Below are positions 42,083-62,400 of a DNA stretch of 64,000 nucleotides, in pieces. Each line of letters starts with the position of its first letter. Within the stretch, counting starts at the first letter, position 1. Origin of the DNA: Thecamonas trahens ATCC 50062 (lineage: Eukaryota; Protista; Apusomonadida); the NCBI RefSeq assembly GCF_000142905.1, contig NW_013657672.1, forward strand, positions 77,053-141,052, written 5' to 3'. A program made the position numbers and the translations under genes. The notes beneath the pieces are model-generated. The model saw only the letters and a program-made list of their open reading frames with translations, was not told the origin of the DNA and did no database searches.

Positions 42083-42910
42083 CTACATCCGTACCATGAT
42101 GCCGACCAGGGAGAGAGTGAGCGCATTCAGGCGAGAAAGGAGAAGGGGGGCACCCCATACGTACTCGGGCTCGGTTTAGCCATGCAGCAGCCAGCAGCCA
42201 CACCGATGACTGCAAGCAGGTAACAGTCCCATGATGCCACACCACGCCCTTCCCTTGTCCCCCCCCCCGNNNNNNNNNNNNNNNNNNNNNNNNNNNNNNN
42301 NNNNNNNNNNNNNNNNNNNNNNNNNNNNNNNNNNNNNNNNNNNNNNNNNNNNNNNNNNNNNNNNNNNNNNNNNNNNNNNNNNNNNNNNNNNNNNNNNNNN
42401 NNNNNNNNNNNNNNNNNNNNNNNNNNNNNNNNNNNNNNNNNNNNNNNNNNNNNNNNNNNNNNNNNNNNNNNNNNNNNNNNNNNNATCCCCCCCCCCCGTT
42501 ACTGCCGGTTGTAAACACATCAATCGTCGACGATGGTGATGGGACAGGGACAAGCATGGCCGACTCGCCCCTGATTGTGGCGATGATAACGCAGTGAAAG
42601 TAGCCCCCCCCCCTCCCCCCCTCCCCCCTTCCTCGAGGTCATCTTGTTACCTAAGGTCGTCGCCCCAGAGGCCGCAGCTGTCCTTATCAGGTGGTAGTGG
42701 TCTCATTGACCACGTCACTTGTGGTCATCCGCTGCCGAAGCTATGCTCCAGCCATTCTGCGGCATCATGTTTGCCCATGGAACACACATCATCGGTTCCG
42801 ATTGACTACCTCCTGTCATGTGTGTGAACCATCCCAGTGCCATGTCTATCCAGCTCCGCCATCAGGTTCCTGAAGGTACACCGATCAGTCCCCTTCAACA
42901 GCAACAGCTG

Positions 42911-43133
42911 CATCGGCTACATCGGCTACATCGGCTACATCGGCTACATCGGCTACATCGGCTACATCGGCTACATCGGCTACATCGGCTACATCGGCTA
43001 CATCGGCTACATCGGCTACATCGGCTACATCGGCTACATCGGCTACATCGGCTACATCGGCTACATCGGCTACATCGGCTACATCGGCTACATCGGCTAC
43101 ATCGGCTACATCGGCTACATCGGCTACATCGGC
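42911..43133. repeat. Perfect 9-bp minisatellite (CATCGGCTA), about 24 copies
   Basis: Read directly from the sequence; it explains the spurious HRL/IGY/ADV repeat ORFs. Confidence 0.97.
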
Positions 43134-43373
43134 AACTCTCTGTATCCCATCCACCGACTCCATGATCACACCAGTGTGTCATCTGTGGGTATGAGCCAAT
43201 GAAGTGAACCCACAATCGCGAGCAAAAGGGTGGGCGACGAGGGCGACGAGGGCGACGAGGGCGACGAGGGCGAGTCGAGCGCCGAGACGGCGGCCCGCCT
43301 GCCCTCAACCTCCCTGACCACCCTGGTTGACGCACCCATCCACACTTCACGCACGCTGAGTACGTGTGGGCAC

Positions 43374-45694
43374 ATGGGTCGCAGAAGACGGAAGAAGGCA
43401 GCGGGCAAGGGCAGCAGGGGCTACGCCACCACCTCGCTGGCTTCGGCGGACAAGACGGACAAGACAGACTCGGCGGTGCCGAAGGCTGTGCAGATCGCAT
43501 CTGACGTGACGGCTGGGAATGCTGAGCCGCCAGCGGCTGATGACGGCGCGACAGAGCTCGACGAGAAGCGATGTCGGCATCTGGCGACGGTGCGGACAAA
43601 GGTGATGCGCCGTAAGCTGCCGCATGCAGCTCTGGACTCGTGCCTCTCGTGTGGCACCCAAGGTGCCGAGCTGTGGATCTGTCTGTGGTGTGCTCAGTTG
43701 GGTTGTGGCCGCGCTGCGTCGGGCTGTGCGCTGCAGCACGCCCAGTCAGCGGGAGCAAGCACGTGCTTGTTCTGTCATGCTCGTCGCTGATGGTCTGGTG
43801 CTACGGGTGTGATGCAGAGGTTGGGCTGCTTCCCGACCGCGCTCTGCACGAGGCCCGCGCGCTTGTCCGCCGATACGCAGGGCTCGGTGACCACGTCATG
43901 GATCCGTCGGCGACTAACAGCGATGTGCAACTGCCTGCAGTCAATGCTGCCCCACCAGCGCTCAAAGGCAAGCGCAACAGCGGTCACGCCCGTTCAGCGC
44001 CTGGCAAGATCTCGTGGTGGGACGGTGGCGTCGAGTGCGGCGCCACCAAGGCCAAGCCCAAGGCCAAGCCGCGGCGGAACACCGCCGGCAAGCGCGGCCG
44101 ACTCAAGGGCGTTGCGCCCGGCATGTGCGGCATCCCCAACATTGGCAACACATGCTTCTTCAACTCGGTCCTGCAGACGCTCGCCCAAATGCCGCCGCTT
44201 GTCGCCGGGTTGGTGATCACTCCGCGGCCTGCTGGCATTGCTGGCCTGCTCAGCGACGTGCTGCGGACCATGTGGAAGCCCTCTAGTGGCAGCCCAAACC
44301 CACGCAAGCTCTTTGGCGCCATCTGTGGTCTTGCGCCGCAGTTCAGAGGTTTTGGTCAGCAGGATGCCCACGAGCTGTTACGGGTCCTGGTTGATGGCTT
44401 GCGCGACGAGTCTGACGTGCGTCCGCCACTAGTGGACACTGTCTGGCGCGGGGAAATGGTCTCGGTAGTCATCTGCGATGTCTGCGCTGTCCCTTCGCTC
44501 CGGCGCGAGCCGCTGTACGACATCTCGCTGCCGGTGGGCAAGCCGAGGGCCGCAGCCACCCGCCCCCACTCTGGCTACGTTGCCGGGGCGGGCTACGGCG
44601 CCGCGTCCAGCTCGCGCCGTGGTAAGCGCAAGAACAAGCGTAAGAACAAGCGTCGCGGACAAGGGCTGGCTGTCGACGACTGGTACAACCCGCTTGAGTC
44701 GGCCATCCCCGATCGCGCTGCAGCCACAGAGCAGGCTGCTGTGCCCGGCCACGATGCGCTCTCGGGCGAGCTCTCCGGCTTTCGCGACGGGACGGGTCCT
44801 GACATCGACCACTACGTCGGCCCAGGTGTTGCCGGCTCTGTCAGCTTTCATCGCCTCCCGCCTGAGCTGGCGGCGGCGGCAAGCGCGACGCCAATCACCC
44901 TCGAGGGCTGCCTGGCTGCTTTCGCCGCAGTCGAGACGCTCGATGCCGCCAATCGCTACGCCTGCTCCGCATGCACCAAGGCCAAGCTGGGTAGTATCGA
45001 GGCCGAGCGCGGCGAGCCGCTCCCGCAGCAGGTCTGGCGCAAACGCCGGGTCTTCCAGACCGCTCTCAAGCAGCTGGTCCTCACACGCCTTCCGCCTGTC
45101 CTCATTCTGCATCTGAAGCGGTTCGATCAGTCGCGCGGCCGCATGGCCAAGCTTGGCGCACACGTGGTCTTCCCTCCCATTCTTGACATGGCTCCGTTTG
45201 TGGCAAGCGATCTGCCCCACGTCGACGCAGTCGAGCTCGCGCACTCGTCATCCTCTGACAGCTCGGCGTCGAACGATGACGATGACGCCACCGCACATGA
45301 CGACGCGCCGCTGACCTACGCCCTCGTCGGGATTGTCGTCCACAGCGGCTCACTCCACGGCGGCCACTACGTGGCTTACGTCCGCCACTCGGACGCCATC
45401 GCGACCGCGCAGCGAAGGTCCGACTCGAATGCTGCCGATCCAAGTGTCGACAGCGAGCCGAGAACCCGCAGCCAGTGGCTGGCTTGGTTGCACGCCTCGG
45501 CCTGGCTGTATGTCTCGGATTCATCGGTCTCACTCTCGAGCCTCGACGACGTGCTGCGGCAGCAGGCGTATCTCCTAGTTTACGAGCGGATTGAGTGTGC
45601 GCCCGAGCCTGTACCCGGACCCAATGCTCAGCCGAGCGATGCATCGGAGACTTCCGACGTACCGGACGCCTCATCGCCGGCGCCTGTGACGTGA
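43374..45694 (+). CDS. Ubiquitin-specific protease with ZnF-UBP (USP16/USP45-like), interrupted by one frameshift near 43750
   Basis: The first frame gives MGRRRRKK...CRHL...CLSC...LWICLWCAQLGCGR...ALQHA. The -1 frame continues HVLVLSCSSLMVWCYGCDAEV, then the Cys box GIPNIGNTCFFNSVLQ, QQDAHELLR, LILHLKRF, and the His box VHSGSLHGGHYVAYV. Confidence 0.85.
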
Positions 45695-48600
45695 GTTGGA
45701 GCTCGAGGCGATTGTCGGAGCGAGGTCGTTGTCATCATCGTCGTCGTCATCCTGCCCGTCCTCCCCGCCGGTCAATTCGCTCTCCACGAGACCGAGTTCA
45801 CGGGAGAGGACCGAGATAATGTCGGCAAAGGTCGGACGCGCGGTTGGAACCTCGGCCCAGCACGCCTGCAGCATGTTGGCCCAGAGCCGCGGCATGGACT
45901 CGCCGATCGGCGGGCGAAGGCCGGCGGCGAGAACGCCGGCAGCAACCTGTGGCGCGGTGAGGTCGGCAAAGACGGGCGTGCGGGTGACAAGCTCCCACAT
46001 GGCGATGCCAAAGGCCCAAACATCGGCTGGAGGCCCGTGGTTGCCGCGAAGCGACTCGGGAGCCATGGCCTTGAGCGGACCCACAAACGTCGAACTGGTA
46101 GCCTCTCCCACGCTTGAAGCCTCGGCAAGAACCGTCTTGGAGAGCCCAAAGTCGGCGACCTTGATGGAGCCGCGCCCGGTCACCAACAGGTTGCGGAGCG
46201 CGAGGTCGCGATGAACGAGCCCCTCGGAATGAATGTGCATCATACCTGATGCCACCTCAAGCGCAATCTGAAACATGCGGTTGGCCGGAATGGTGACCTG
46301 GCCGTCGAAGACAAGCTTGTCGAGTGAGCCGCCCGAGCAGTACTCGGTGACCAGGTACAGTTCGCGGATGCCAGTCGGAAGGACAACTCCTGACATGCCC
46401 AGAAAGAGCACAATGTTTGGGTGGGCTTTGAGCCCGTGCATCGTCGCCACCTCGCGGAGAAAGGCGGCCATGTGGCGGCCGTCGACGGCAGCACGCAGGC
46501 GCTTGACCGCTACGTCGGCGCCGCGCCAGCTCCCCACATACACAACCCCAAACGCACCAGAGCCAATCTGGTCGCCGATGACAAGCTCGCCAAAGTCGAG
46601 TTGGGCCGCTCCTGCACTTGCGCCAAAGTCAACATCCTTCAGCTCGCCGTCGCTGCTGCTGCTTCTGGCGCTCGACGGACCGACGCCCGCGAGCTCGCGG
46701 CGGATTCGCGCCGCCACCCCGAGCGGGATGCTCGCGCCGCGCGCAAGTTCGGATGTCGAGAGCGCCTCCACTGCAGCGCCGTCGAGTTTCGCAGCGCGAA
46801 TAGCGTCAACGTGGATGGCAAGCTCGGGCTGGCCGACGCACCACGCCACCACTTGATCAACTGTCCACTTGGCAAGCGGCGCATCGGGCGTCGCCCCCAT
46901 AGTCACTGATGTGGCGCCTGGCGGCAGTCCAAGCATGGCGGCAGCCTGCGGGCACGGCACGACAGGGTCAAAGTACGCTCCATCGTGCCTGAGGTCGGAC
47001 CAGGGAATCGGGAGCTCAAAGCCTGCAGTACGGAACTGGGCCTCAGCGAAGAGCGCAAAGGCGCGCTCAAAGGCCGGGAATCGCGTACCGTCCCCGTGCG
47101 TCGTCCAGAACGTGCGCGGGTCGCCAGGCCACGCCGGTGGCGGAGTCGGCGACGCCACATCGTCGTGCCGCCACGCCGAGACAGGCACCACAAACGCCGC
47201 GAGATCATCGGCCCGCACGCCGGCCAGCGGGGTTGAGAACAGCACTAGGTCGCCATCGTTGGCAGAGAGTGTGACCCAGGCGTAGCCGCCGACTGGCATC
47301 AGTTCCGGCGTCGGCGGGATCTGGACTGCGTCCGATGAGCGCGCCAGCGCGTCAGCATGCTCGAGCAGCTGTCCAAAGTCGAGTTGGGCCTTATCACCGA
47401 CCTTGTGATCGGGCGCCAGACGTGCAACGCCACACTCGGCTGCCAGCACGTCGACGGGCGTTCCGGTCCACGCGTGTGCGTAGGCGATGACATAGGCTGT
47501 GAGCAGGGCCAAGTCGAACGGGTACTTGGTCGACTTGTCCATCCAGAACAGTGGATTCGAGCGAAGCGCTCCGGGCGGCCAGCGCGCACCCTCAACGCCG
47601 AGGTATGGGTGGAAAAGCCGCCGCCAGAGCTTGGTCAGCCACGGGGCATGGATCCAGGGCAGGATCCGGAACGTGATGGGACGGACGACGTAGTAGGCGG
47701 CGACCCGGTCTGCAAGTGTGTGGCGGGGATCAAACGGCGGCACGTCCATGTGTGGTGCCACCTTGGCTGACGACTGAAGCTTGAGGAGAAAGCACTCGTT
47801 GGCCAGGCGCAGCTCGCCCGGCTCGGCCACACCATATGCATCGCAGATCGGGTCCAGCACCTCGGGCACCCACATGAGCGGCGTCGTCAGGCCGTGGACG
47901 TAGACTATGCCGGACGAGCGCTCTCCAATTGTCAGCGGCTGTCGCACTTTGCGCACACCATCGTAAAACAAAACAGAGTCGTCGTCTGAGAAGAAAGCAG
48001 CCCGCTGGCCTGGATCGTGGAGACCGCCGAGCGTCGCCAGTGCTGCCCGCGACACCACACTCCCAGGCGTGGCAAAGTCGAAGATTGACAGCGCGTTCGA
48101 GCCCGAGCGTGAGGCGAGAAAGTCGAGATAGAGCTGAAAGTGAGCCTCGACCGTTGCCTTGGCCGCACGCGGCAGCACGTCCGAGACCACCACGTGGCCT
48201 TGGGTCCGGAATGCGGCGCGCTGCGCGTCGCTCAGCGCCCGCGCCGGCGGCAGCGTCGGAACCGCAAGCGGCACCCGTGCCGCTGCACTTGCCATCGGCG
48301 GCACCGGCGTGCCACCAAGGACGAGGCGGATCCACATCAGGGTCTCGCCCATGACGTTGGCCGAGCTTGGCGAGCCACCGGACCAGAACGACTCTGAGCG
48401 GAACGGCGACTTTGCAAGCGGCCGCGGTGCCGACGATAGCAGAGCCGCAGCGAGCGGTGGATGCTGCACATACAACGCAAGAAGGCCATCGCGCATGACA
48501 TTGACCCGTCGCAGCTTCCATGCCGCCTGCTGCGCCTCGCTCAGCGGGCGCTCGCGGCGGAGCTGGCGGGCGGCAGCAGCGAGCGTCCCAGCCTCGGCAG

Positions 48601-48859
48601 CATCACGGAGCAGGATCTGGACCGCCGGCACCGTGTCGTACTTGGTAGCTTGAAAGTAGTGCAATGCCGAAGAGTACCTCGCACCGCCGAGTGTAATGGC
48701 GATTCGGCATCGCGCCACATCAGGAAACACCGCCGCCACCGCCGCCGCCGCCTTCTCTGGCACCTGTGGCCAAGCCGAGGAGAGAAAGGCCCAGCCATTG
48801 ACCTTGCTGGTCGCGAAGAACAGCGTGTCGAGAACGAGTCCCTCATCCTCCTCAGCCAT
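45671..48859 (-). CDS. Multidomain protein: NADAR (YbiA-like) + PhyH-like 2OG-Fe(II) dioxygenase fold + SAM + tyrosine-kinase-like protein kinase
   Basis: NADAR: HYFQATKY, W...VMRDGL..YVQHPPLAAALLSSAPRPL, FWSGG, NVMGETLMWIR. PhyH: LSDAQRAAFRTQGHVVVSDVL, HMD, GDLVLF. SAM: WTVDQVVAW...LDGAAV...IPLG. Kinase: IGSGAFG, VAVK, HRDLALRN, DFG, MAPE, DVWAFG. Confidence 0.85.
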   Translation of the reverse strand: MAEEDEGLVLDTLFFATSKVNGWAFLSSAWPQVPEKAAAAVAAVFPDVARCRIAITLGGARYSSALHYFQATKYDTVPAVQILLRDAAEAGTLAAAARQLRRERPLSEAQQAAWKLRRVNVMRDGLLALYVQHPPLAAALLSSAPRPLAKSPFRSESFWSGGSPSSANVMGETLMWIRLVLGGTPVPPMASAAARVPLAVPTLPPARALSDAQRAAFRTQGHVVVSDVLPRAAKATVEAHFQLYLDFLASRSGSNALSIFDFATPGSVVSRAALATLGGLHDPGQRAAFFSDDDSVLFYDGVRKVRQPLTIGERSSGIVYVHGLTTPLMWVPEVLDPICDAYGVAEPGELRLANECFLLKLQSSAKVAPHMDVPPFDPRHTLADRVAAYYVVRPITFRILPWIHAPWLTKLWRRLFHPYLGVEGARWPPGALRSNPLFWMDKSTKYPFDLALLTAYVIAYAHAWTGTPVDVLAAECGVARLAPDHKVGDKAQLDFGQLLEHADALARSSDAVQIPPTPELMPVGGYAWVTLSANDGDLVLFSTPLAGVRADDLAAFVVPVSAWRHDDVASPTPPPAWPGDPRTFWTTHGDGTRFPAFERAFALFAEAQFRTAGFELPIPWSDLRHDGAYFDPVVPCPQAAAMLGLPPGATSVTMGATPDAPLAKWTVDQVVAWCVGQPELAIHVDAIRAAKLDGAAVEALSTSELARGASIPLGVAARIRRELAGVGPSSARSSSSDGELKDVDFGASAGAAQLDFGELVIGDQIGSGAFGVVYVGSWRGADVAVKRLRAAVDGRHMAAFLREVATMHGLKAHPNIVLFLGMSGVVLPTGIRELYLVTEYCSGGSLDKLVFDGQVTIPANRMFQIALEVASGMMHIHSEGLVHRDLALRNLLVTGRGSIKVADFGLSKTVLAEASSVGEATSSTFVGPLKAMAPESLRGNHGPPADVWAFGIAMWELVTRTPVFADLTAPQVAAGVLAAGLRPPIGESMPRLWANMLQACWAEVPTARPTFADIISVLSRELGLVESELTGGEDGQDDDDDDDNDLAPTIASSSNSRHRRRR

Positions 48860-49540: not shown

Positions 49541-50947
49541 ATGTCCAACTCAAAGCACAGCCGTGCTCTCCCTCTGCCGTTATACGTTGCGTTGGCGCGC
49601 GAGGCAGCAGCGTTTGCGACTGACCAGCTGGCGCACAGCTCGCAGGTGCGGATGGCGGCGTTCCGGCCGAGCCCGGCGCTCGAGGCCCAGCTTGACCTGG
49701 TTGTCGAGCCGCGCGATGCCATGCCGGAGTCGTTTGAAGAGCATTCCGGCAAGCTGATGGTCATGTTTGTGAAGAAGCCATCCGAGCAGCGTGTGGTCCG
49801 TGCCAAGGCCTGGGCTTCGCCGCGCGGCTTCAAGTCTCTCAAGAACGAGAACGCTGACATTGCCTCGTCGTACCGCCACCGCCGCGACAAGGCCTGGTCG
49901 TACAAGAGCTACCGCAAGCTTGTCGACGCCGGCGATGACGGCGACGGCGTGCCTGCGGTTGTGGTCTTGCATGTCGTCCAGCGGAACGGGGTCTCCGGGA
50001 CCGGCCGGCTTCCGCCCATGGTGGGGCCATCATCGTCGTCATCGTCGTCGTCGTCGTCGCGGTCGAAGAAGGCTTCGAAGAAGGCCTCCAAGAAGACCTC
50101 CAAGAAGAAGTCCCCGCTCCCGCTCCCGCTCCCGCTCCCCATCCCTAGCTGGAGTCGGACCCCGGACGGTCTCCCGCTGCCCGTTCCTCTCCCGGCGCCC
50201 GCACTCCCGGCGCCCACACTCCCGGCGCCCGCACTCCCGGCGCCCGCACTGCCGGCGCCCGCACTGCCGGCACCCCAACCGGTGGTCGCCGCCTCGGCCC
50301 CGGTCGCTGACATGCTTCCAGTGACCCTGCAGGGTGGGCCGGGCAACCTCGATGTGTTCGAGTTCCCGAGCCTGGATCTCAGCCAGCCTCCAGTGTCGAC
50401 CATTGATGACGAGGTCCCGATTTCGCCGCGCAGCATGTTCCGCTTTTGCCACATGTCGTCGCCGCCGCCGTCGCCGCCGCCGTCGCCGCCGCCGCCGTCG
50501 TCCTCGATGCCACGCCCGCTGGTGCGCGGCCCACTGCCGGAGGGCCTGCTGGAGGCTGCGCGCAAGCCGCTCCGGCCCACCGTCTCGTTGCCTGCGACCG
50601 ACAAGCTCGACGCTGCTGCGCACGATATGCTGCTCGCACAGGGAATGTCGCCGCGCTCGTTGTCAGACATGGCGCTCGGGCCAGCCAAGGCTGGAGCTTG
50701 TCCCGCCGCCTTTCCGCCGCTGGGCATCAAGCCGGTCCACCAGGCGCTCCGCGAGTCCAAGCTCGACCAGCTCGTCGAGGGTTTTGCGACCGCTCGGACT
50801 GGCATCCAGTTCCCGCACCGGCGCATGCTCCGCCTTGACCCCACACTCCTGCTCGGTTGCGACGACTCGTCGCTGGGCAACCCCACGAGCCCGCTTGACG
50901 CCGGCTCGTGGGCGATGGATGTTGTCCTCTCGCCGCGGCAGTTTTAG
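49541..50947 (+). CDS. Hypothetical protein with a basic N-terminal globular region and Pro-rich disordered tail (possible transcription factor)
   Basis: 468-aa ORF from ATG 49541 with typical codon usage, a KKASKKASKK NLS-like stretch and PAPAL repeats. Confidence 0.65.
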   Translation: MSNSKHSRALPLPLYVALAREAAAFATDQLAHSSQVRMAAFRPSPALEAQLDLVVEPRDAMPESFEEHSGKLMVMFVKKPSEQRVVRAKAWASPRGFKSLKNENADIASSYRHRRDKAWSYKSYRKLVDAGDDGDGVPAVVVLHVVQRNGVSGTGRLPPMVGPSSSSSSSSSSRSKKASKKASKKTSKKKSPLPLPLPLPIPSWSRTPDGLPLPVPLPAPALPAPTLPAPALPAPALPAPALPAPQPVVAASAPVADMLPVTLQGGPGNLDVFEFPSLDLSQPPVSTIDDEVPISPRSMFRFCHMSSPPPSPPPSPPPPSSSMPRPLVRGPLPEGLLEAARKPLRPTVSLPATDKLDAAAHDMLLAQGMSPRSLSDMALGPAKAGACPAAFPPLGIKPVHQALRESKLDQLVEGFATARTGIQFPHRRMLRLDPTLLLGCDDSSLGNPTSPLDAGSWAMDVVLSPRQF

Positions 50948-52650: not shown

Positions 52651-53485
52651 GTGCCTACAACTCCCGCCACCACAGCCCCTGTACTTTCCCTCCCCCCTCC
52701 AGTCTCACACGGCGAGGAGTGATACCTTGTCCGTCCGCCTCGGTACCTGTCCGTCTCGTGACGCGCGACGGACGCCCACTCATTGGCTGCATCCAGCCAC
52801 GCTCTGCTTTTTCACGGCGGCGTCACGGCAAAAAGATACGGCATCGGTGATGTCGATGACAGGGAAGACGTCGGCGGCAGCCATGAGTATAACCTTGCTC
52901 TCTCAGCTGAGCGTTGCTTAGTCCTTGTTGTGGCAAGAGATTTCTGCTCTGTGTGGGGGCTTTACCAAGCTTGCAGGGGGGATGGCACAGGTGGAAAGTC
53001 CCAGTACCTCATGCAGTGCCAATTTGATGTCGCCGAACTCCGCATCCGAATCAGCACCGAACAATGTCGGCGAAACCAGCGCGTCAGCCCGACGACTCCT
53101 ACTTGTTCCGCAATCGAGGGCATCATCCAAAGCACCATCACGGGCACGGCGAACAAGATCAGCAACCGCTCCATGACATCGATCAGAGTCAATCAAGTTT
53201 TCATCATTCTTCCATCCACCACCCAAGACACCAGCGATCTCTACCGTCAGTCCGGACAGCGACTTTGACGCAATCAACCCAGACGGTTTGCCTGTGTGTG
53301 TGTGTGTGTGGTTGGGGGCTCGAACAAGGGCACGCACGATCAACGACGCGGAGAGGCAGATGAGAACATGCTGGAGTAGGAGATACTCAACTCCACCCCC
53401 CCCCCCTCCCCCCCCCCCCCACCCACACACACATAGAGTTACACCCCTCCCAATCTCTGCCACTCTCCCCCTCCCCTCGTGTACC

Positions 53486-56400
53486 ATGTCTCGCTCCCTC
53501 GTCGCTTCCCTGCCCGCTGCGGCTGCGTCGGCGGTGGTGGTCATGGTGGTCATGGCGTCTGTGGCCATGACAACCGCAGCACCAGTCCCGTCTCTGACGC
53601 CAGCTACGGCTACGGCGAGCATCGATCTTGGCGCCACCTTTCCCTTTGTCACCACTTTCTCTAATGCAGGCTCGCTTCCTCCGGGGTATGGACCTCGCAT
53701 CCTCTATCAATACCCGCCGGAACTCACGCCGCCATCAAGCTACGATTATGGAGGCAACGCTCTCGATGTTCTCCTCTCCACTACCTTGACTGCTCCATCG
53801 CCATGCATACCCCATCCAGTTGATCCGCCTCCAGCTACGCTCTGTGGCCTGCCTGGGGAAGTGGTGCATCTCGTTGCTCTGCCCTTTGCCTCGTTTGTCC
53901 CGTCACAACCGCCGGTCGACGTCACCGCTCTCGGTGCAGCCGTCCTTGCTGCCAACGGAGGCGCTCCAGGCTCGCCTGTCGTCATCACTACGACCCCGTA
54001 CTTTGCCGACGGCACTGACCCAACAACTTCGACTGATCCTCCCATCGCTGGAGCCGCTACCACGCTCACAGTCACTCCGCGCGACGTCGAGGTCACCGCA
54101 CGGCTCTCTGCTGCCTCTTGGACTCTCGGTCCATCTGCGCCGCAGACCTACACCGTCGCTGTAGACGTGCCCGATGGTGTTGTCACAGGCTCACTCAACA
54201 TCACAATACCGCTCCCGGCAGGTCTAGTTCTCACTGGCCCGCCCACTGCCTCGGCGGGCGTGGTCACGTCGGCGCCGACCGTCTCAGGCGTACCTCTCGA
54301 CGGCACTCACGTCGCCATCATTGTCGAGGCTGGCAATATCGTCGGCACCCCTGGCGGTCCAGAATTCACGCTCATCGTTCCATTTGCCGTCGACTGCATT
54401 GACGGCTCCGGTCTGCCTTGGCTTGACCCTGAGAGCTCGGTCGATGCAGCGTCGATTGTCTTCCCAGACCCGCGTGCAGATCTCGCGTCGTCGAGCTCAA
54501 TTGTGGCTGCCGGTCCGTCGGCTACGCTCGAGTCGCTCATCCTCCGTGCGCCAACACCAGCCATCAGCACTGACGTTGGTGCTACAGGCGTCACACCCGG
54601 CGATATTCTCGCCTCGGTCTTCACCTTTGACGTCTCGGACTGCGTTGCTCTCGAGCTTGACATCGACGCCACCATTGCCGACGGCGTCAGCTATGTCCCT
54701 TCGCCGCCGCCGACGCTCTCTCTTGACGGCGGCGCCACAACATCGCCGCTTGCATCCGGGCCCAATGGCCTCTCAGTCGACATCTCTCGCATTGGCAACG
54801 ACGCCAATCCAGCAACCGATGGCACGACTAGCTTCGCGTACAACCTCACCGACGCTCTCGCTGTGCTAGGCGCGTCGTCTGCCGGTTTCATCCCGGGGCC
54901 GGTCACTGGCGGTTCCCTTGTCACCTCGGTTCAGGTGGCCACCACGTACACAGATTCTCCCGTCTCCGGCGGCCGCCTTGCCCCGGGTGACACGCTCACT
55001 CTCGCCTCGACAGCTGTTTTCCGCATTGTCAACGCTTCCACTGGTGCCCCGCGCTCGCCGTGGCTTCCGGGTGGCAATCCAGGGTGGACGACTTCGGTGC
55101 GAACAACAGCCATCTCCGAAACCGCGCTGTACGCGGCCAACGATGTTGTTTGTTACCCGTGCACCTCGCTCTCGACGCTCGCCCCAGGCTCAAACATCAC
55201 GTTTTCGATGCGCTACACAGTGCCGATGGGGGTCTCGCCGTCGCTCGACTTGGTGGCTTACCTGCCGACTCCAGTGTTTGACACGTCGGTGCTGGCAAGC
55301 TCGCCGTACCTCGCATCAGCCGTGCCGTCGGCCCTCCCGCCCCCGCTTGGAGGCTTCCAGCTCGGCCCGTTTGACTCGATGTACAACGGCGGCATAGGCG
55401 CCGACGCCGTGCCCAACGTCACCGTGGATGCGTCCAACGTCGTCACTTTTTCATTCCCTTACATGGAGCTCAACACAACCGGCGAGTACGAGATCAACGT
55501 CCTGGTTACCGTTGCCGTTGGCACGACCCCACTGCCGGATCTTTCTCCATTCCTCATTGTGACCCAGTCGTCGTCAGGAGCCTCATTCTCGTCGACAGAC
55601 CTCTCCGTGCGGTTTGGTGAGCCAGAGCTTGTCCTCCACAAGGGCATCCTTGGTGTTGATGATGGCACGCCGATCAAGGCAGCTCACTTTGCTGGCGCCG
55701 TGCCGGCAACGCCGGGTTTGCCCAGCCCTGACCCGGCCACAGTGCGCGCGGCTGCAGCCAATCCGAGCAATGCATGCTCTCTGCTCTCTGCGGGCATGGC
55801 CGTCACTTCAGGTGACGTTGCGGCGAGCCCGCTCGACACCGCTGGCCTTGTGGATCTCGACGCCGGTGATCTTGTTGTCTTTGCCATTGTTGTCGAGAAC
55901 GTCGGCCACGCACACGCCTACGACGTCCGGTTGAGTGACGGGCTCCCGGCCGATTTTGAGCTGGTCGCCGAGTGCGTGCTTGCATCCGACGGCTCCGCCT
56001 TCCCACACACCGGCTCACTGTTTGGGCCGAGTGGCATCGAGCTGGCCGACTCGATCACCGCCGGGGCGCTCCGCCAGGGTCGGGACCTCAACTCGACGCT
56101 TGCGACCGACGGGTCCAACATCGCGGTTGCGCTCGTGGTAGCACGCGCCAGCAACACCACATGTCCAGGAGATGCTCCCCAACCCGGTGCGGCGGCTGCG
56201 GTCACGCGCTACTCAAACAGCGAGGGTGGCGGCAATTTTATCGGCAATGTTGTGTCCTCGCTCTCTGCATCAAGTGGTCCACTCGCGCTCCGCACCCCAA
56301 CCGCAGTCATCGCGCTTGTGTCGACCTCGCTGCCCGAAACAAGTGGGCTAGAGGTTACCGCTGGCGAGATGGTGATCGTTGAGCTCGTACTTAGCCCGTT

Positions 56401-59400
56401 TGAGGGCACGCTTCCGGCCATGGTCAGCTACTTTACCGGGGGTGGGTCGGCCAACTCGGTTGTCGAGTCGGCTTCACTGCTGGCAGGCCCGGGTCTCGAT
56501 CACATGGGCCTCACTCCCGCCACAGCAGCTGGTGCTCTCGCGGGCAACCAGTTTGGGCCAGTCGAGCTGTTCAACCGTGGTGACAACGTGCTCAATGGAT
56601 CGGATGTTGTGGCATTGTCAGCGCAGCTCCGTGTGGTGTCGAGCTTGACCACGGCCACGTTTGCCATCACTGGCGTTTTTGACTACAAGCCTAGCTTGGC
56701 AGGGCCAGCAACCGATGGTATTGTGTTCACCGTAGTCGCGCCATCATTGACGGTTGCACTCGATGTGCCGAGCGGATTCGTCGATGCCAACGACGTGATT
56801 CCGGTTGTGGTCACCATCGACGATGCGGTAGCATCGAGTGGACCAGCCTACGAAACTTTGGTGACTGTTACCGTTGATGCCAAGCTCGCGCTCAACTCGC
56901 TGCTTGGCGGATGGCCGGCGGCCAACGTTACTCTGGTCTCGCCGCAGATCGCTCTGGTTGCACTCGGAACGCGTTTGCCGTCGGACCCGCCAGTTGTGTT
57001 GACGCTCAATGCTACCGTGGCAAACAACGTGAACGCCACGGAGGCGCTCGCGCTCTCCGTCCAACTTGACTATCTTTCCGCGCCAAACGCGTCTGTGGCT
57101 ACACCTTATTTGGCGACGGCGACTGGAATGCTGACCGTCGGACAGCCAGAGGCTGTGTCAATCGTCTACGACGGCTCTTCTGAGGCGACGACCGTTCCGC
57201 CTGCGACTGCCATCGGTGAGACTGTGGCGTTTTCTGGTCTGATTCGTGTGCACGAGGGTGTGACATCGTCGATGAGTCTTGTGGTCTCTAGCACGTGCAT
57301 CACTACCATCGACACAGCTGCTGTTTGGTTCGACGAGACTGTATTGTCTGCTAGCGATGCTGTGTCAGGCACGCTTGCCTCTGCCGGATCCATTTTCCTT
57401 GGCGACGTGACCAACACCGCGGACAATGCCGTAGACACACGTGACGAGCTCGTAATCAACGGGACGCTACATCTGGTGGACGCTGGAGGCAACACCAACA
57501 ATGACGCTTGCGACGTCGTTGCAACTGCGTCTTGGGTGCCTGACTCGGGTGTGCCATCCAGCTCTGTGGCTTTATTCGCCGTCGATGTGGTGGAGCCCAT
57601 ACTGGCGGCATCGCTGACGATGTCCCCGAGTACAGGTGATGCCGGTAACTGGGTGACTGTCAGTGCCTCGGTTGCTCACGTTGGCGGCTCGCGGTCGTCG
57701 GCGCACAATCTCACCTTGGTGGTTGCATTGCCGCATCAGCTTGAGCTGGTGCCCAGAAGCGCGGTGGTGTCGGCCCCAGGCGCTCCAGATGTTCAAGTTG
57801 TCTTTTTCAATGCCACGCATGTTGTGGCCGAGGTGGGGCGGCTAGATGGGCCGCCAGCGGCAGCAGCCAGTCTTCTCTTCATGTCGGTGATCACCAATTC
57901 GTCGCTGCCTGCATCTGTTGGGACGGCCACCGTTGCAGCCACTTATCATTCCGTGTCGCATGCTTCCACAAGGCGTCGCTACGAGGCGGTAGACTCTGCC
58001 GTGCTGTCTGTCGTTTCGCCGACTGATGCGCGGATGGCCACATTGTCGACATCTCTCACCGAAACAGGACTTTCGCAGCACGACATGACCAACTGGGATC
58101 TTGCTGTTGGCGAGACAGCCGACGTCAACACGACCGTGGTGCTGTCTGAGGGCACGATGCCACTCACGGTCTCGGTCGACTTTGGTCTTGCCGCTGGTCG
58201 CGTCGAGATCGTCCACACCGAGGTTATTGCGCTCGGGGCTTCGATCTCAGGCTCGGCGCTCAGTCTGGGTGCAGCAGCCTCGGCAACCACAACCGACACG
58301 GCGACATACGCGTTTGGCACCATCACCAATACCGGCGACAACGTCCTTGACGCTGGCGATAGCGTTGTGGTTCTGACCCGCGTCCGTGCTCTTGACGTCC
58401 CGGTCAACGTCGATGGCACTGCCATCAGCGCAGCCTCGACTGCTGACTTTGGCTCAGGCACGCTTGTTGCAAGCGAGTCGTTCGATGTGGTGGCCCCACT
58501 CCTCACGTTCGACCTCGCTCAGTCGATCACGACTGGTGACGCTGGCGACAATGTGACCTTCACCGTCACGGTCGACCATGCTGGTGCGTCGACGGCGGCG
58601 GCGTATGCGCTCAACGCTACGTCACTGTTCAACATCGAGTACGCCCTGTTCTCGGGCTCGGTCACCACCACCTCTGGTACTGTTGTATCTGGCAACAATG
58701 CCGGTGATGCGTCGGTCCATGTCCTCATCCCGACGTTCGATCTGGGGACTGGCCCTATCACCATCACGTACGTCGCGGCGCTGACAGACTTTGTCTCGCC
58801 GCATCAGACGACGTGGCACGCATCTGCGCTCGAGTATGGCACCTCGCCGGAGGCTGCTGTTGCACGCACCCTTGCAACAGCCGACAATGAGACGATTGTT
58901 GTTGATGACCCCTACGAGGCACGCATGGCTACGCTTGCGACCTCTCTTCCGGGATCTGGCCTTGCAGAGCACGTCGCCACGGCGTGGGACCTGTCCATCG
59001 GCGAGACAGCCGACGTCAATACGACCGTGGTGCTGTCTGAGGGCACGATGCCACTCACGGTCTCGGTCGACTTTGGTCTTGCCGCTGGTCGCGTCGAGAT
59101 CGTCCACACCGAGGTTGCTGCGCTCGGGGCTTCGATCTCAGGCTCGGCGCTCAGTCTGGGTGCAGCAGCCTCGGCAACCACAACCGACACGGCGACATAC
59201 GCGTTTGGCACCATCACCAATACCGGCGACAACGTCCTTGACGCTGGCGATAGCGTTGTGGTTCTGACCCGCGTCCGTGCTCTTGACGTCCCGGTCAACG
59301 TCGACGGCACTGCCATCAGCGCAGCTTCGACTGTTGACTTTGGCTCGTCGTCCCTCACTGCAAGCGAGTCGTTCGATGTGGTGGCCCCACTCCTCACGTT

Positions 59401-62400
59401 CGACCTCGCTCAGTCGATCACGACTGGTGACGCTGGCGACAATGTGACCTTCACCGTCACGGTCGACCACGCTGGTGCGTCGACGGCGGCGGCGTATGCG
59501 CTCAACGCTACGTCACTGTTCAACATCGAGTACGCCCTGTTCTCGGGCTCGGTCACCACCACCTCTGGTACTGTTGTATCTGGCAACAATGCCGGTGATG
59601 CGTCGGTCCATGTCCTCATCCCGACGTTCGATCTGGGGACTGGCCCTATCACCATCACGTACGTCGCGGCGCTGACAGACTTTGTCTCGCCGCATCAGAC
59701 GACGTGGCACGCATCTGCGCTCGAGTATGGCACCTCGCCGGAGGCTGCTGTTGCACGCACCCTTGCAACAGCCGACAATGAGACGATTGTTGTTGATGAC
59801 CCCTACGAGGCACGCATGGCTACGCTTGCGACCTCTCTTCCGGGATCTGGCCTTGCAGAGCACGTCGCCACGGCGTGGGACCTGTCCATCGGCGAGACAG
59901 CCGACGTCAATACGACCGTGGTGCTGTCTGAGGGCACGATGCCACTCACGGTCTCGGTCGACTTTGGTCTTGCCGCTGGTCGCGTCGAGATCGTCCACAC
60001 CGAGGTTGCTGCGCTCGGGGCTTCGATCTCAGGCTCGGCGCTCAGTCTGGGTGCAGCAGCCTCGGCAACCACAACCGACACGGCGACATACGCGTTTGGC
60101 ACCATCACCAATACCGGCGACAACGTCCTTGACGCTGGCGATAGCGTTGTGGTTCTGACCCGCGTCCGTGCTCTTGACGTCCCGGTCAACGTCGACGGCA
60201 CTGCCATCAGCGCAGCTTCGACTGTTGACTTTGGCTCGTCGTCCCTCACTGCAAGCGAGTCGTTCGATGTGGTGGCCCCACTCCTCACGTTCGACCTCGC
60301 TCAGTCGATCACGACTGGTGACGCTGGCGACAATGTGACCTTCACCGTCACGGTCGACCACGCTGGTGCGTCGACGGCGGCGGCGTATGCGCTCAACGCT
60401 ACGTCACTGTTCAACATCGAGTACGCCCTGTTCTCGGGCTCGGTCACCACCACCTCTGGTACTGTTGTATCTGGCAACAATGCCGGTGATGCGTCGGTCC
60501 ATGTCCTCATCCCGACGTTCGATCTGGGGACTGGCCCTATCACCATCACGTACGTCGCGGCGCTGACAGACTTTGTCTCGCCGCATCAGACGACGTGGCA
60601 CGCATCTGCGCTCGAGTATGGCACCTCGCCGGAGGCTGCTGTTGCACGCACCCTTGCAACAGCCGACAATGAGACGATTGTCGTTGATGACCCCTACGAG
60701 GCGCGTATGGCTACGTTGTCGACATCTCTCACCGAAACAGGACTTTCGCAGCACGGCATGACCAACTGGGATCTTGCTGTTGGCGAGACAGCCGACGTCA
60801 ACACGACCGTGGTGCTGTCTGAGGGCACGATGCCACTCACGGTCTCGGTCGACTTTGGTCTCGCTGCTGGTCGCGTCGAGATCGTCCACACCGAGGTTGC
60901 TGCGCTCGGGGCTTCGATCTCAGGCTCGGCGCTCAGTCTGGGTGCAGCAGCCTCGGCAACCACAACCGACACGGCGACATACGCGTTTGGCACCATCACC
61001 AATACCGGCGACAACGTCCTTGACGCTGGCGATAGCGTTGTGGTTCTGACCCGCGTCCGTGCTCTTGACGTCCCGGTCAACGTCGACGGCACTGCCATCA
61101 GCGCAGCTTCGACTGTTGACTTTGGCTCGTCGTCCCTCACTGCAAGCGAGTCGTTCGATGTGGTGGCCCCACTCCTCACGTTCGACCTCGCTCAGTCGAT
61201 CACGACTGGTGACGCTGGCGACAATGTGACCTTCACCGTCACGGTCGACCATGCTGGTGCGTCGACGGCGGCGGCGTATGCGCTCAACGCTACGTCACTG
61301 TTCAACATCGAGTACGCCCTGTTCTCGGGCTCGGTCACCACCACCTCTGGTACTGTTGTATCTGGCAACAATGCCGGTGATGCGTCGGTCCATGTCCTCA
61401 TCCCGACGTTCGATCTGGGGACTGGCCCTATCACCATCACGTACGTCGCGGCGCTGACAGACTTTGTCTCGCCGCATCAGACGACGTGGCACGCATCTGC
61501 GCTCGAGTATGGCACCTCGCCGGAGGCTGCTGTTGCACGCACCCTTGCAACAGCCGACAATGAGACGATTGTCGTTGATGACCCCTACGAGGCGCGTATG
61601 GCTACGTTGTCGACATCTCTCACCGAGACAGGACTTTCGCAGCACGACATGACCAACTGGGATCTTGCTGTTGGCGAGACAGCCGACGTCAACACGACCG
61701 TGGTGCTGTCTGAGGGCACGATGCCACTCACGGTCTCGGTCGACTTTGGTCTTGCCGCTGGTCGCGTCGAGATCGTCCACACCGAGGTTGCTGCGCTCGG
61801 GGCTTCGATCTCAGGCTCGGCGCTCAGTCTGGGTGCAGCAGCCTCGGCACCCACAACCGACACGGCGACATCCGTTTGGCACCATCACAATACCGGCGAA
61901 CACGTCCTTGGACGCCGGCGATNNNNNNNNNNNNNNNNNNNNNNNNNNNNNNNNNNNNNNNNNNNNNNNNNNNNNNNNNNNNNNNNNNNNNNNNNNNNNN
62001 NNNNNNNNNNNNNNNNNNNNNNGTGCTCTTGACGTCCCGGTCAACGTCGATGGCACTGCCATCAGCGCAGCCTCGACTGTTGACTTTGGCTCAGGCACGC
62101 TTGTTGCAAGCGAGTCGTTCGATGTGGTGGCCCCACTCCTCACGTTCGACCTCGCTCAGTCGATCACGACTGGTGACGCTGGCGACAATGTGACCTTCAC
62201 CGTCACGGTCGACCATGCTGGTGCGTCGACGGCGGCGGCGTATGCGCTCAACGCTACGTCACTGTTCAACATCGAGTACGCCCTGTTCTCGGGCTCGGTC
62301 ACCACCACCTCTGGTACTGTTGTATCTGGCAACAATGCCGGTGATGCGTCGGTCCATGTCCTCATCCCGACGTTCGATCTGGGGACTGGCCCTATCACCA

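Follow-up and report, generated by a model that had tools for sequence, protein, structure and literature searches.

A degenerate NADAR domain and a probable PhyH-like region fused to a likely SAM domain and a kinase in a single protein of Thecamonas trahens

In this work, we analyzed a stretch of 64,000 nucleotides from the marine protist Thecamonas trahens ATCC 50062 (contig NW_013657672.1, positions 77,053 to 141,052 of the forward strand; the window, in which all coordinates below are counted) and, within it, a gene of the minus strand which had been predicted from the sequence alone (the original prediction) to encode a NADAR/YbiA domain, a PhyH-type dioxygenase, a SAM domain and a protein kinase in one chain. 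The gene is a single, confirmed open reading frame (ORF). Its domain architecture is genuine, and within the searches made it was seen in this one protist only. The kinase is likely tyrosine-directed, with all catalytic motifs intact, and the NADAR domain, judged from the residues it has lost, is predicted not to be a hydrolase by known chemistry. As the leading but tentative reading, drawn by analogy with other systems, the front ~650 residues would constitute a non-catalytic ligand-binding module that switches a SAM-clustered kinase. The features on which the argument relies are the following:

45671..48859, minus strand: single ORF of 1062 amino acids, corresponding to the T. trahens 'TKL protein kinase' XP_013761051.1, with the frame confirmed by DNA contigs
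48317..48826, minus strand: degenerate NADAR/YbiA domain, residues ~12-181 (Pfam E 2.6e-9; YbiA E 1.8e-7; support of 93 in the Shimodaira-Hasegawa-like approximate likelihood ratio test, SH-aLRT)
48662..48664, minus strand: Leu66, replacing the ribose-binding Glu (E43 of the Phytophthora NADAR, E88 of the E. coli C7 NADAR); contigs of runs X1 and X3 agree
48410..48412, minus strand: Lys150, at the site of the main catalytic acid (E125 of the Phytophthora NADAR, D171 of the E. coli C7 NADAR, His in phage members); contigs of runs X1, X2 and X9 agree
46910..48244, minus strand: probable PhyH-type 2-oxoglutarate (2OG)-Fe(II) oxygenase fold, core ~206-563, interrupted by long insertions and extended C-terminally to ~650; predicted inactive
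47219..47221, minus strand: Gly547, placed by an inferred register (46-row alignment A6) at the distal iron-binding His column; contigs of runs X1, X3 and X9 agree on the bases
46691..46876, minus strand: likely SAM domain, residues ~662-723
45806..46579, minus strand: protein kinase domain of the tyrosine kinase/tyrosine kinase-like (TK/TKL) type (PF07714, residues 761-1018, E 9.3e-56)
45671..45802, minus strand: acidic/basic tail, residues 1020-1062, missing from the deposited model

The single 1062-residue frame, already proposed in the original prediction, was borne out by three observations: (i) the minus-strand ORF 48859-45671 contains no internal stop over its 1062 codons, when the longest stop-free frame in 500 shuffles of the region had a mean of 217 and a maximum of 394 codons, (ii) the deposited model XP_013761051.1 (1021 residues) is identical to residues 1-1019 of the ORF and ends two residues later, and (iii) overlapping DNA contigs of four sequencing runs (X1, X2, X3 and X9, from at most three samples) span the ORF with four single-base differences and no indels, bridging all the junctions between the NADAR, middle, SAM and kinase parts. 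The GC content at third codon positions is 0.74-0.76 in the four domains; ten other ORFs of the window range from 0.67 to 0.82, and the codon GC of the gene matches that of its host. The possibility of two genes (NADAR-PhyH and SAM-kinase) transcribed or spliced apart draws on the fact that no RNA contig bridges the parts of the ORF; two metatranscriptome runs cover the kinase part over just 231 and 194 bases, matches that do not demonstrate transcription. Nevertheless, the uninterrupted frame, the contigs crossing each junction, the deposition as one protein and the uniform codon composition make such a division extremely improbable.

The NADAR domain is recognized firmly. Residues 54-178 exceed the curated PF08719 cut-off of 35.1 bits with a score of 38 (42.7 when the domain is scored by itself), the E. 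coli YbiA structure 2b3w matches with an E-value of 1.8e-7, and TIGR02464 matches below its own cut-off. The closest NADARs constitute a subfamily with the motif FKSxKxNG(Y/F)xxLSNFWP, of which we collected 19 members, 17 by pattern and two by hand. This subfamily (P0007-P0021 and others) is uncharacterised and carries an insertion after LSNFWP.

Residue roles were assigned by profile alignment onto the ADP-ribose-bound NADAR of Phytophthora nicotianae, 8BAU (with a two-residue numbering offset). In this protein E43 and E125 contact the distal ribose and K50, R79, W89, R93 and W133 the pyrophosphate; in the E. coli C7 NADAR, substitution of the E125 equivalent (D171A/N) abolishes efficient hydrolysis, and E88A alone has only a minor effect in vitro (PMC11543638). 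In the T. trahens protein, E43 is replaced by Leu66, E125 by Lys150 and K75 by Ala94, while four pyrophosphate-binding residues are retained as Lys73 (K50), Trp114 (W89), Arg118 (R93) and Trp159 (W133); Arg98 falls in the column of R79, an assignment by column only. A search of representative proteins gave 217 matches, and counts of related domains refer to the domains of the 149 other matches listed. Among them, Glu occupies the position of Leu66 in 163 of 169 and that of Lys150 in 145 of 170, and both acids are missing in just 3 of 169; all 19 members of the subfamily retain both glutamates, the one at the Lys150 position included. Both codons are supported by independent contigs with identical bases, so Leu66 and Lys150 are real and not assembly errors. 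Having lost both catalytic glutamates, the domain would not be a hydrolase by known chemistry, a loss which the original prediction had overlooked. It is the loss of the ribose-binding glutamates together with the persistence of the pyrophosphate-binder equivalents that points towards a pseudo-enzyme which may still bind. Compared with the NADAR/YbiA family at large (YbiA 2b3w, 8BAU, the DarT1 antitoxins), the protein carries the same domain by profile and keeps the K50, W89, R93 and W133 equivalents, but differs in Leu66 and Lys150, in the fusion to a kinase, in the insertion after LSNFWP and in that no DarT1-type ADP-ribosyltransferase lies beside it in the flanking ORFs scanned.

The middle region quite likely has a PhyH fold. 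In the ESM Atlas, residues 195-655 obtained a score of 0.92, with PhyH in 22 of 30 matches; the shared features amounted to 151 of 256, under the 170 usual within a family, and residues 1-740 taken jointly scored 0.76. In a comparison with 59 bacterial ORFs, of which 27 were PhyH, the seven top matches belonged without exception to PhyH. A PhyH-subfamily profile gave 9.1 bits, a score stemming entirely from residues 205-237, when the highest value among 500 shuffles was 1.2, and a gapped global test gave a z of 3.2 with this N-terminal motif and no signal without it. The region resembles PhyH oxygenases (PF05721; PHYH 2a1x, PHYHD1 3obz, EctD) in presenting the N-terminal helix-strand motif, the HxD motif and the GD-hydrophobic strand in order, and differs from them in lacking, in the preferred register, the distal His and the Arg, in having ~200 extra residues, in falling below profile cut-offs and in being embedded in a kinase.

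Structure prediction was of limited value. The single-sequence AlphaFold model of the whole protein had a predicted local distance difference test (pLDDT) of 37. An alignment-guided model of the middle region reached 56.7, with low confidence for 201 of 452 residues and an unreliable register at 320-440; it matched 7dzz (VIA; Z 11.3, root-mean-square deviation (rmsd) 4.7, 198 residues aligned) and PHYH (Z 10.9, rmsd 3.5, 175 aligned), matches that are not independent because a PhyH alignment had been supplied to the model. Foldseek returned no match for the middle-region model at an E-value of 0.001. Sequence searches with the middle region were likewise negative: PF05721 did not match, nor did any Pfam family at E-values up to 10; no relatives were found in NCBIfam, PHROGs, PDB sequences, or viral and metagenome contigs; plasmids and phages gave chance matches only; a word-based search restricted to lengths of 253-807 gave none at an E-value of 0.1; and none of the representative matches listed covers it.

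If the fold is that of PhyH, the middle region is very likely inactive, as far as its alignment can tell. In alignment A6, H370, D372 and G536 are invariant, the column of the conserved Arg, which in PhyH-type oxygenases binds 2OG, is a gap in the T. trahens protein, and the distal His is nearly invariant in the family. The strand motif at 528-541, together with the downstream WPGDPR, which corresponds to FPGDPR of one bacterial PhyH subfamily, places this His column at Gly547, a change likewise overlooked in the original prediction. It could be argued that catalysis persists in one of the front domains, or in both, through altered chemistry, with a two-ligand iron site like that of halogenases or with His501 as the third ligand, and that the protein is a multifunctional enzyme-kinase: His370 and Asp372 are kept, an alternative register puts His501 at the distal His, and E88A alone was of minor consequence in vitro. 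However, His501 is helical in both models, the strand motif and WPGDPR favor Gly547, and the NADAR domain has lost both acids rather than one. Halogenases, for their part, retain both His and drop the Asp, the reverse of the pattern found here. Altogether, we consider residual catalysis of this kind highly improbable.

The C-terminal half is more conventional. Residues 662-723 gave weak but consistent matches to PDB sequences, 19 of 20 belonging to SAM-bearing proteins (Polycomb and others; best match Scm, E 0.0018). The kinase domain presents the Gly loop (766-771), Lys786, Glu803, HRDLALRN (883-890), DFG (903-905) and APE (933-935), in agreement with the intact kinase proposed originally, and its best PDB matches come from both classes, CTR1 (4.9e-41) and the Src-Abl ancestor (1.8e-39). 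AAR in the catalytic loop and an activation-loop Trp mark tyrosine kinases (PMC8662651); the loop HRDLALRN has the tyrosine-kinase Arg and not the TKL Lys, with one Ala of AAR changed to Leu. According to PMC4053784, six Acanthamoeba tyrosine kinases bear SAM domains in unique domain combinations and have T. trahens homologues. These non-receptor kinases, along with TKLs such as CTR1, are the closest known kinases. As in the former, the likely SAM domain directly precedes a TK/TKL kinase, and the catalytic loop has the Arg of tyrosine kinases; unlike the Acanthamoeba proteins, the T. trahens protein has the NADAR and PhyH-like front, ALR instead of AAR and Ala in place of the activation-loop Trp.

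Taken together, these results are best read, tentatively, in terms of the following model. The NADAR pocket would still accommodate, and leave uncleaved, the diphosphate of ADP-ribose or of a nucleotide or nucleic acid bearing ADP-ribose, in the manner of inactive macrodomains; the PhyH-like fold, which keeps two iron ligands out of three, might offer a second binding or scaffold surface; and ligand binding or recruitment would promote SAM-SAM clustering and thereby trans-autophosphorylation of the kinase. The binding, clustering and coupling steps are inferred by analogy with inactive macrodomains and with MRB7260, an essential trypanosome PhyH-domain protein which lacks most Fe/2OG residues and has an RNA-protein role (PMC5855954). 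Inactive macrodomains serve as readers of ADP-ribose, and they can control the activity of an enzyme joined to them, ALC1 being an example (PMC10789625). The proposed arrangement shares with ALC1 a dead ADP-ribose hydrolase fold beside an enzyme potentially gated by it, and differs in that the NADAR fold is unrelated and that binding and gating, shown for ALC1, would here be suppositions. A complex prediction for the NADAR and kinase domains scored 0.00 and is evidence in neither direction. The sensor-oligomeriser-kinase design of the original prediction stays plausible, with NADAR and PhyH-like parts that are predicted not to work as enzymes.

Several observations weigh against this interpretation. 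First, the changes in the NADAR domain look like broad drift rather than a clean catalytic knock-out: 10 of 23 near-invariant columns are broken, when each of 172 relatives breaks at most seven (the columns were derived from those same 172 domains, which biases the comparison in their favor), N28 (kept in 62 of 63), K129 (169 of 170) and the K75 equivalent are also gone, and the NADAR branch measures 1.91 against a median of 0.62. In addition, the retained Trp residues may be structural, and Arg98 lends little weight since Thr is found there in 11 of the 19 subfamily members. Besides, past the first 45 residues of the middle region no significant signal in the sequence backs the PhyH assignment, the score being equalled in 83 of 200 shuffles, and motif-free tests with a profile that included one non-family ORF were equalled by 108 of 1000 shuffles for residues 250-655 and by 20 of 1000 for residues 500-655. 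The SAM domain falls below the Pfam cut-off (best SAM_Ste50p, E 0.054-0.067), and the activation-loop Trp of tyrosine kinases is replaced by Ala931 in GPLKAMAPE. Finally, the architecture appeared in no second species, either in the search with residues 1-735 or among the representative matches listed.

The residue losses of the front domains fit a binder but also plain decay, and two other explanations have to be weighed. The first holds that dead-enzyme folds were kept as protein- or RNA-binding scaffolds localising or restraining the kinase, with ADP-ribose recognition gone. The broad loss of the NADAR signature over those 10 columns and the long insertions of the PhyH-like part would agree with it, and among the top fold matches of the alignment-guided model is the trypanosomal RESC chain 8fnc_14 (Z 10.8, rmsd 4.3, 199 aligned), which we take to be MRB7260. 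That inactive PhyH domain serves, as noted, in an RNA-protein context (PMC5855954). On the other hand, two polar residues of the pocket, Lys73 and Arg118, for which no part in folding is apparent, were kept along with both tryptophans, and we regard a pure scaffold as somewhat unlikely. The second explanation considers the front a drifting passenger, a once-separate NADAR/PhyH gene fused to the SAM-kinase, whose frame would persist solely because any stop in it would abolish the kinase. It gains from the restriction to a single species, from the long NADAR branch, from the degeneration of both front domains and from the three between-run differences out of four that alter an amino acid (E172K, A628T and E679D, too few to test). 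Notwithstanding, after ~1.9 changes per site the protein keeps K73, W114, M122, L140, W159, L174 and R178, which are invariant in alignment A1, as well as the HxD and PhyH strand motifs, and neutral decay would not spare core and pocket residues; a mere passenger is therefore decidedly unlikely.

With regard to the architecture, the four domains were found in the order and at the coordinates first proposed, the NADAR and kinase domains being firm, the SAM domain likely and the PhyH-like region, the least certain, probable. XP_013761051.1 sits in a protein cluster of one and was the sole match of residues 1-735 among 7999 scored candidates of 584-1859 residues. In the 149 other NADAR proteins listed, a kinase domain occurs in one (P0131) and a PhyH profile match in none. 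In line with the claim that the architecture was undescribed, neither this protein nor a NADAR-kinase fusion nor a reader NADAR is described in the available text of the literature searched (including PMC11125620, PMC9503650, PMC12945103 and PMC13720257); de Souza and Aravind 2012 and Suga et al. 2012 may list such proteins.

The original prediction had also raised a bacterial or giant-virus origin for the front domains and a link to ADP-ribosylated DNA, bacteria or viruses. An organism was named for three of the 18 subfamily members looked up, Ploeotia, Pelomyxa and Mastigamoeba, all of them protists. In a quick unrooted tree of 62 rows, the T. trahens domain and the 19 subfamily members group together (SH-aLRT 93), with the 12 bacterial and 10 viral rows lying outside this group, and at least 59 viral and at least 80 bacterial NADAR loci match the protein from residue 43 on only. 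A recent bacterial or viral source of the NADAR domain is unsupported on account of this grouping and of these partial matches, and the protist relatives and the host-like codon GC agree; an older source of either kind may exist. No finding of this analysis links the gene to ADP-ribosylated DNA, bacteria or viruses. As for the PhyH-like part, PF05721 had no match in 10 virus records, four PhyH queries found none in viral contigs, and the 'Nucleocytoviricota' label in the ESM Atlas is no sign of transfer. The NADAR-kinase architecture is likely a lineage-specific fusion using a NADAR already resident in protists.

Other fusions of NADAR domains exist. P0131 (Namystynia karyoxenos, EukProt EP01062_P024634) has the order kinase-NADAR-NADAR-kinase, each NADAR showing Phe in place of E125, and is an independent NADAR-kinase fusion, since its NADARs lie on a separate branch of the tree. 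Like the T. trahens protein, it joins NADAR and kinase in one chain without an acid equivalent to E125; unlike it, P0131, itself uncharacterised, has a different order, Ser/Thr-type kinases, the first Glu and no detected PhyH or SAM. Further long proteins link NADARs to ion channels (cyclic-nucleotide-gated), MLKL_N, GNAT or CRAL-TRIO. In P0131, P0076, P0111, P0116, P0060, P0022 and P0028 the fused NADARs are mostly tandem, with Phe, Tyr or another residue instead of the catalytic Glu, and the 23 Glu-less domains among the matches listed keep the Lys in 21 cases, the Trp in 23 and the second Trp in 22, which makes the fused ones candidate readers on the basis of their residues. Among the same matches, Glu loss was seen in 10 of 25 long versus 6 of 124 short proteins; a link to protein length failed in single-NADAR proteins (2 of 16 versus 4 of 119, p 0.15), and the loss follows tandem NADARs (17 of 35 domains versus 6 of 135) and not fusion as such. 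The tandem Glu-less NADARs lie elsewhere in the NADAR tree than the T. trahens domain.

At the C-terminus, a 22-nt GT..AG intron at 45801-45780 would yield the ending of the deposited model. The unspliced ORF gains an acidic and then basic tail and overlaps by 24 bases the end of a convergent USP (ubiquitin hydrolase) gene; run X4, whose kind is not on record and whose depth is uneven, reads through the proposed intron without splicing, which is a weak hint. Housekeeping genes without relation to the kinase make up the flanks, namely the USP, a GRAB/GRIP coiled-coil protein, an ArfGAP and two ORFs without Pfam match; the flanking ORFs scanned also include a DUF11-like repeat protein. The USP ORF (43275-45694, plus strand) has a frame break near 43750-43772: P0003 (818 residues) matches two frames, the zf-UBP domain lies in the upstream one, and a single additional base follows 43750 in a contig of run X6. 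The break is likely an assembly error truncating the deposited 634-residue model. Upstream of the USP, beside an assembly gap, 42900-43150 holds a tandem repeat with a 9-base unit (HRL or CSR when read). A divergent proline-rich ORF of 468 residues (49541-50947, plus strand), with no Pfam match and no exact copy in the protein collection, starts 682 bases from the kinase start. At 53360-62032 and beyond (plus strand), a 2890-residue ORF with near-identical repeats of ~297 residues matches DUF11 weakly (E 3e-4) and ends at an assembly gap; it has the look of a large protein of the cell surface.

Protists were already known to possess SAM-tyrosine kinases combined with unusual domains, and what sets this protein apart from them is the NADAR and PhyH-like front. 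The reader domains treated in a 2023 review comprise macrodomains, WWE, PBZ and others, NADAR not being among them in the part available (PMC10789625), and the NADAR literature searched portrays NADARs, in its available text, as erasers only. Should the NADAR domain turn out not to bind, the gene would represent a further case of domain shuffling in a protist kinase, restricted to its lineage. It is tempting to speculate, unlikely as we judge it, that this is the first NADAR-fold reader, binding either free ADP-ribose or nucleic acid with ADP-ribosylated guanine and activating tyrosine phosphorylation in a bacterivorous protist, and one of several eukaryotic signalling proteins (kinases, cyclic-nucleotide-gated channels, MLKL-N) with independently acquired NADARs devoid of the catalytic Glu. 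Binding without cleavage, if true, could make the NADAR domain usable as a reagent for detecting guanine ADP-ribosylation, and would add a reader fold and connect ADP-ribose with signalling by phosphotyrosine close to the base of the lineage of animals and fungi.

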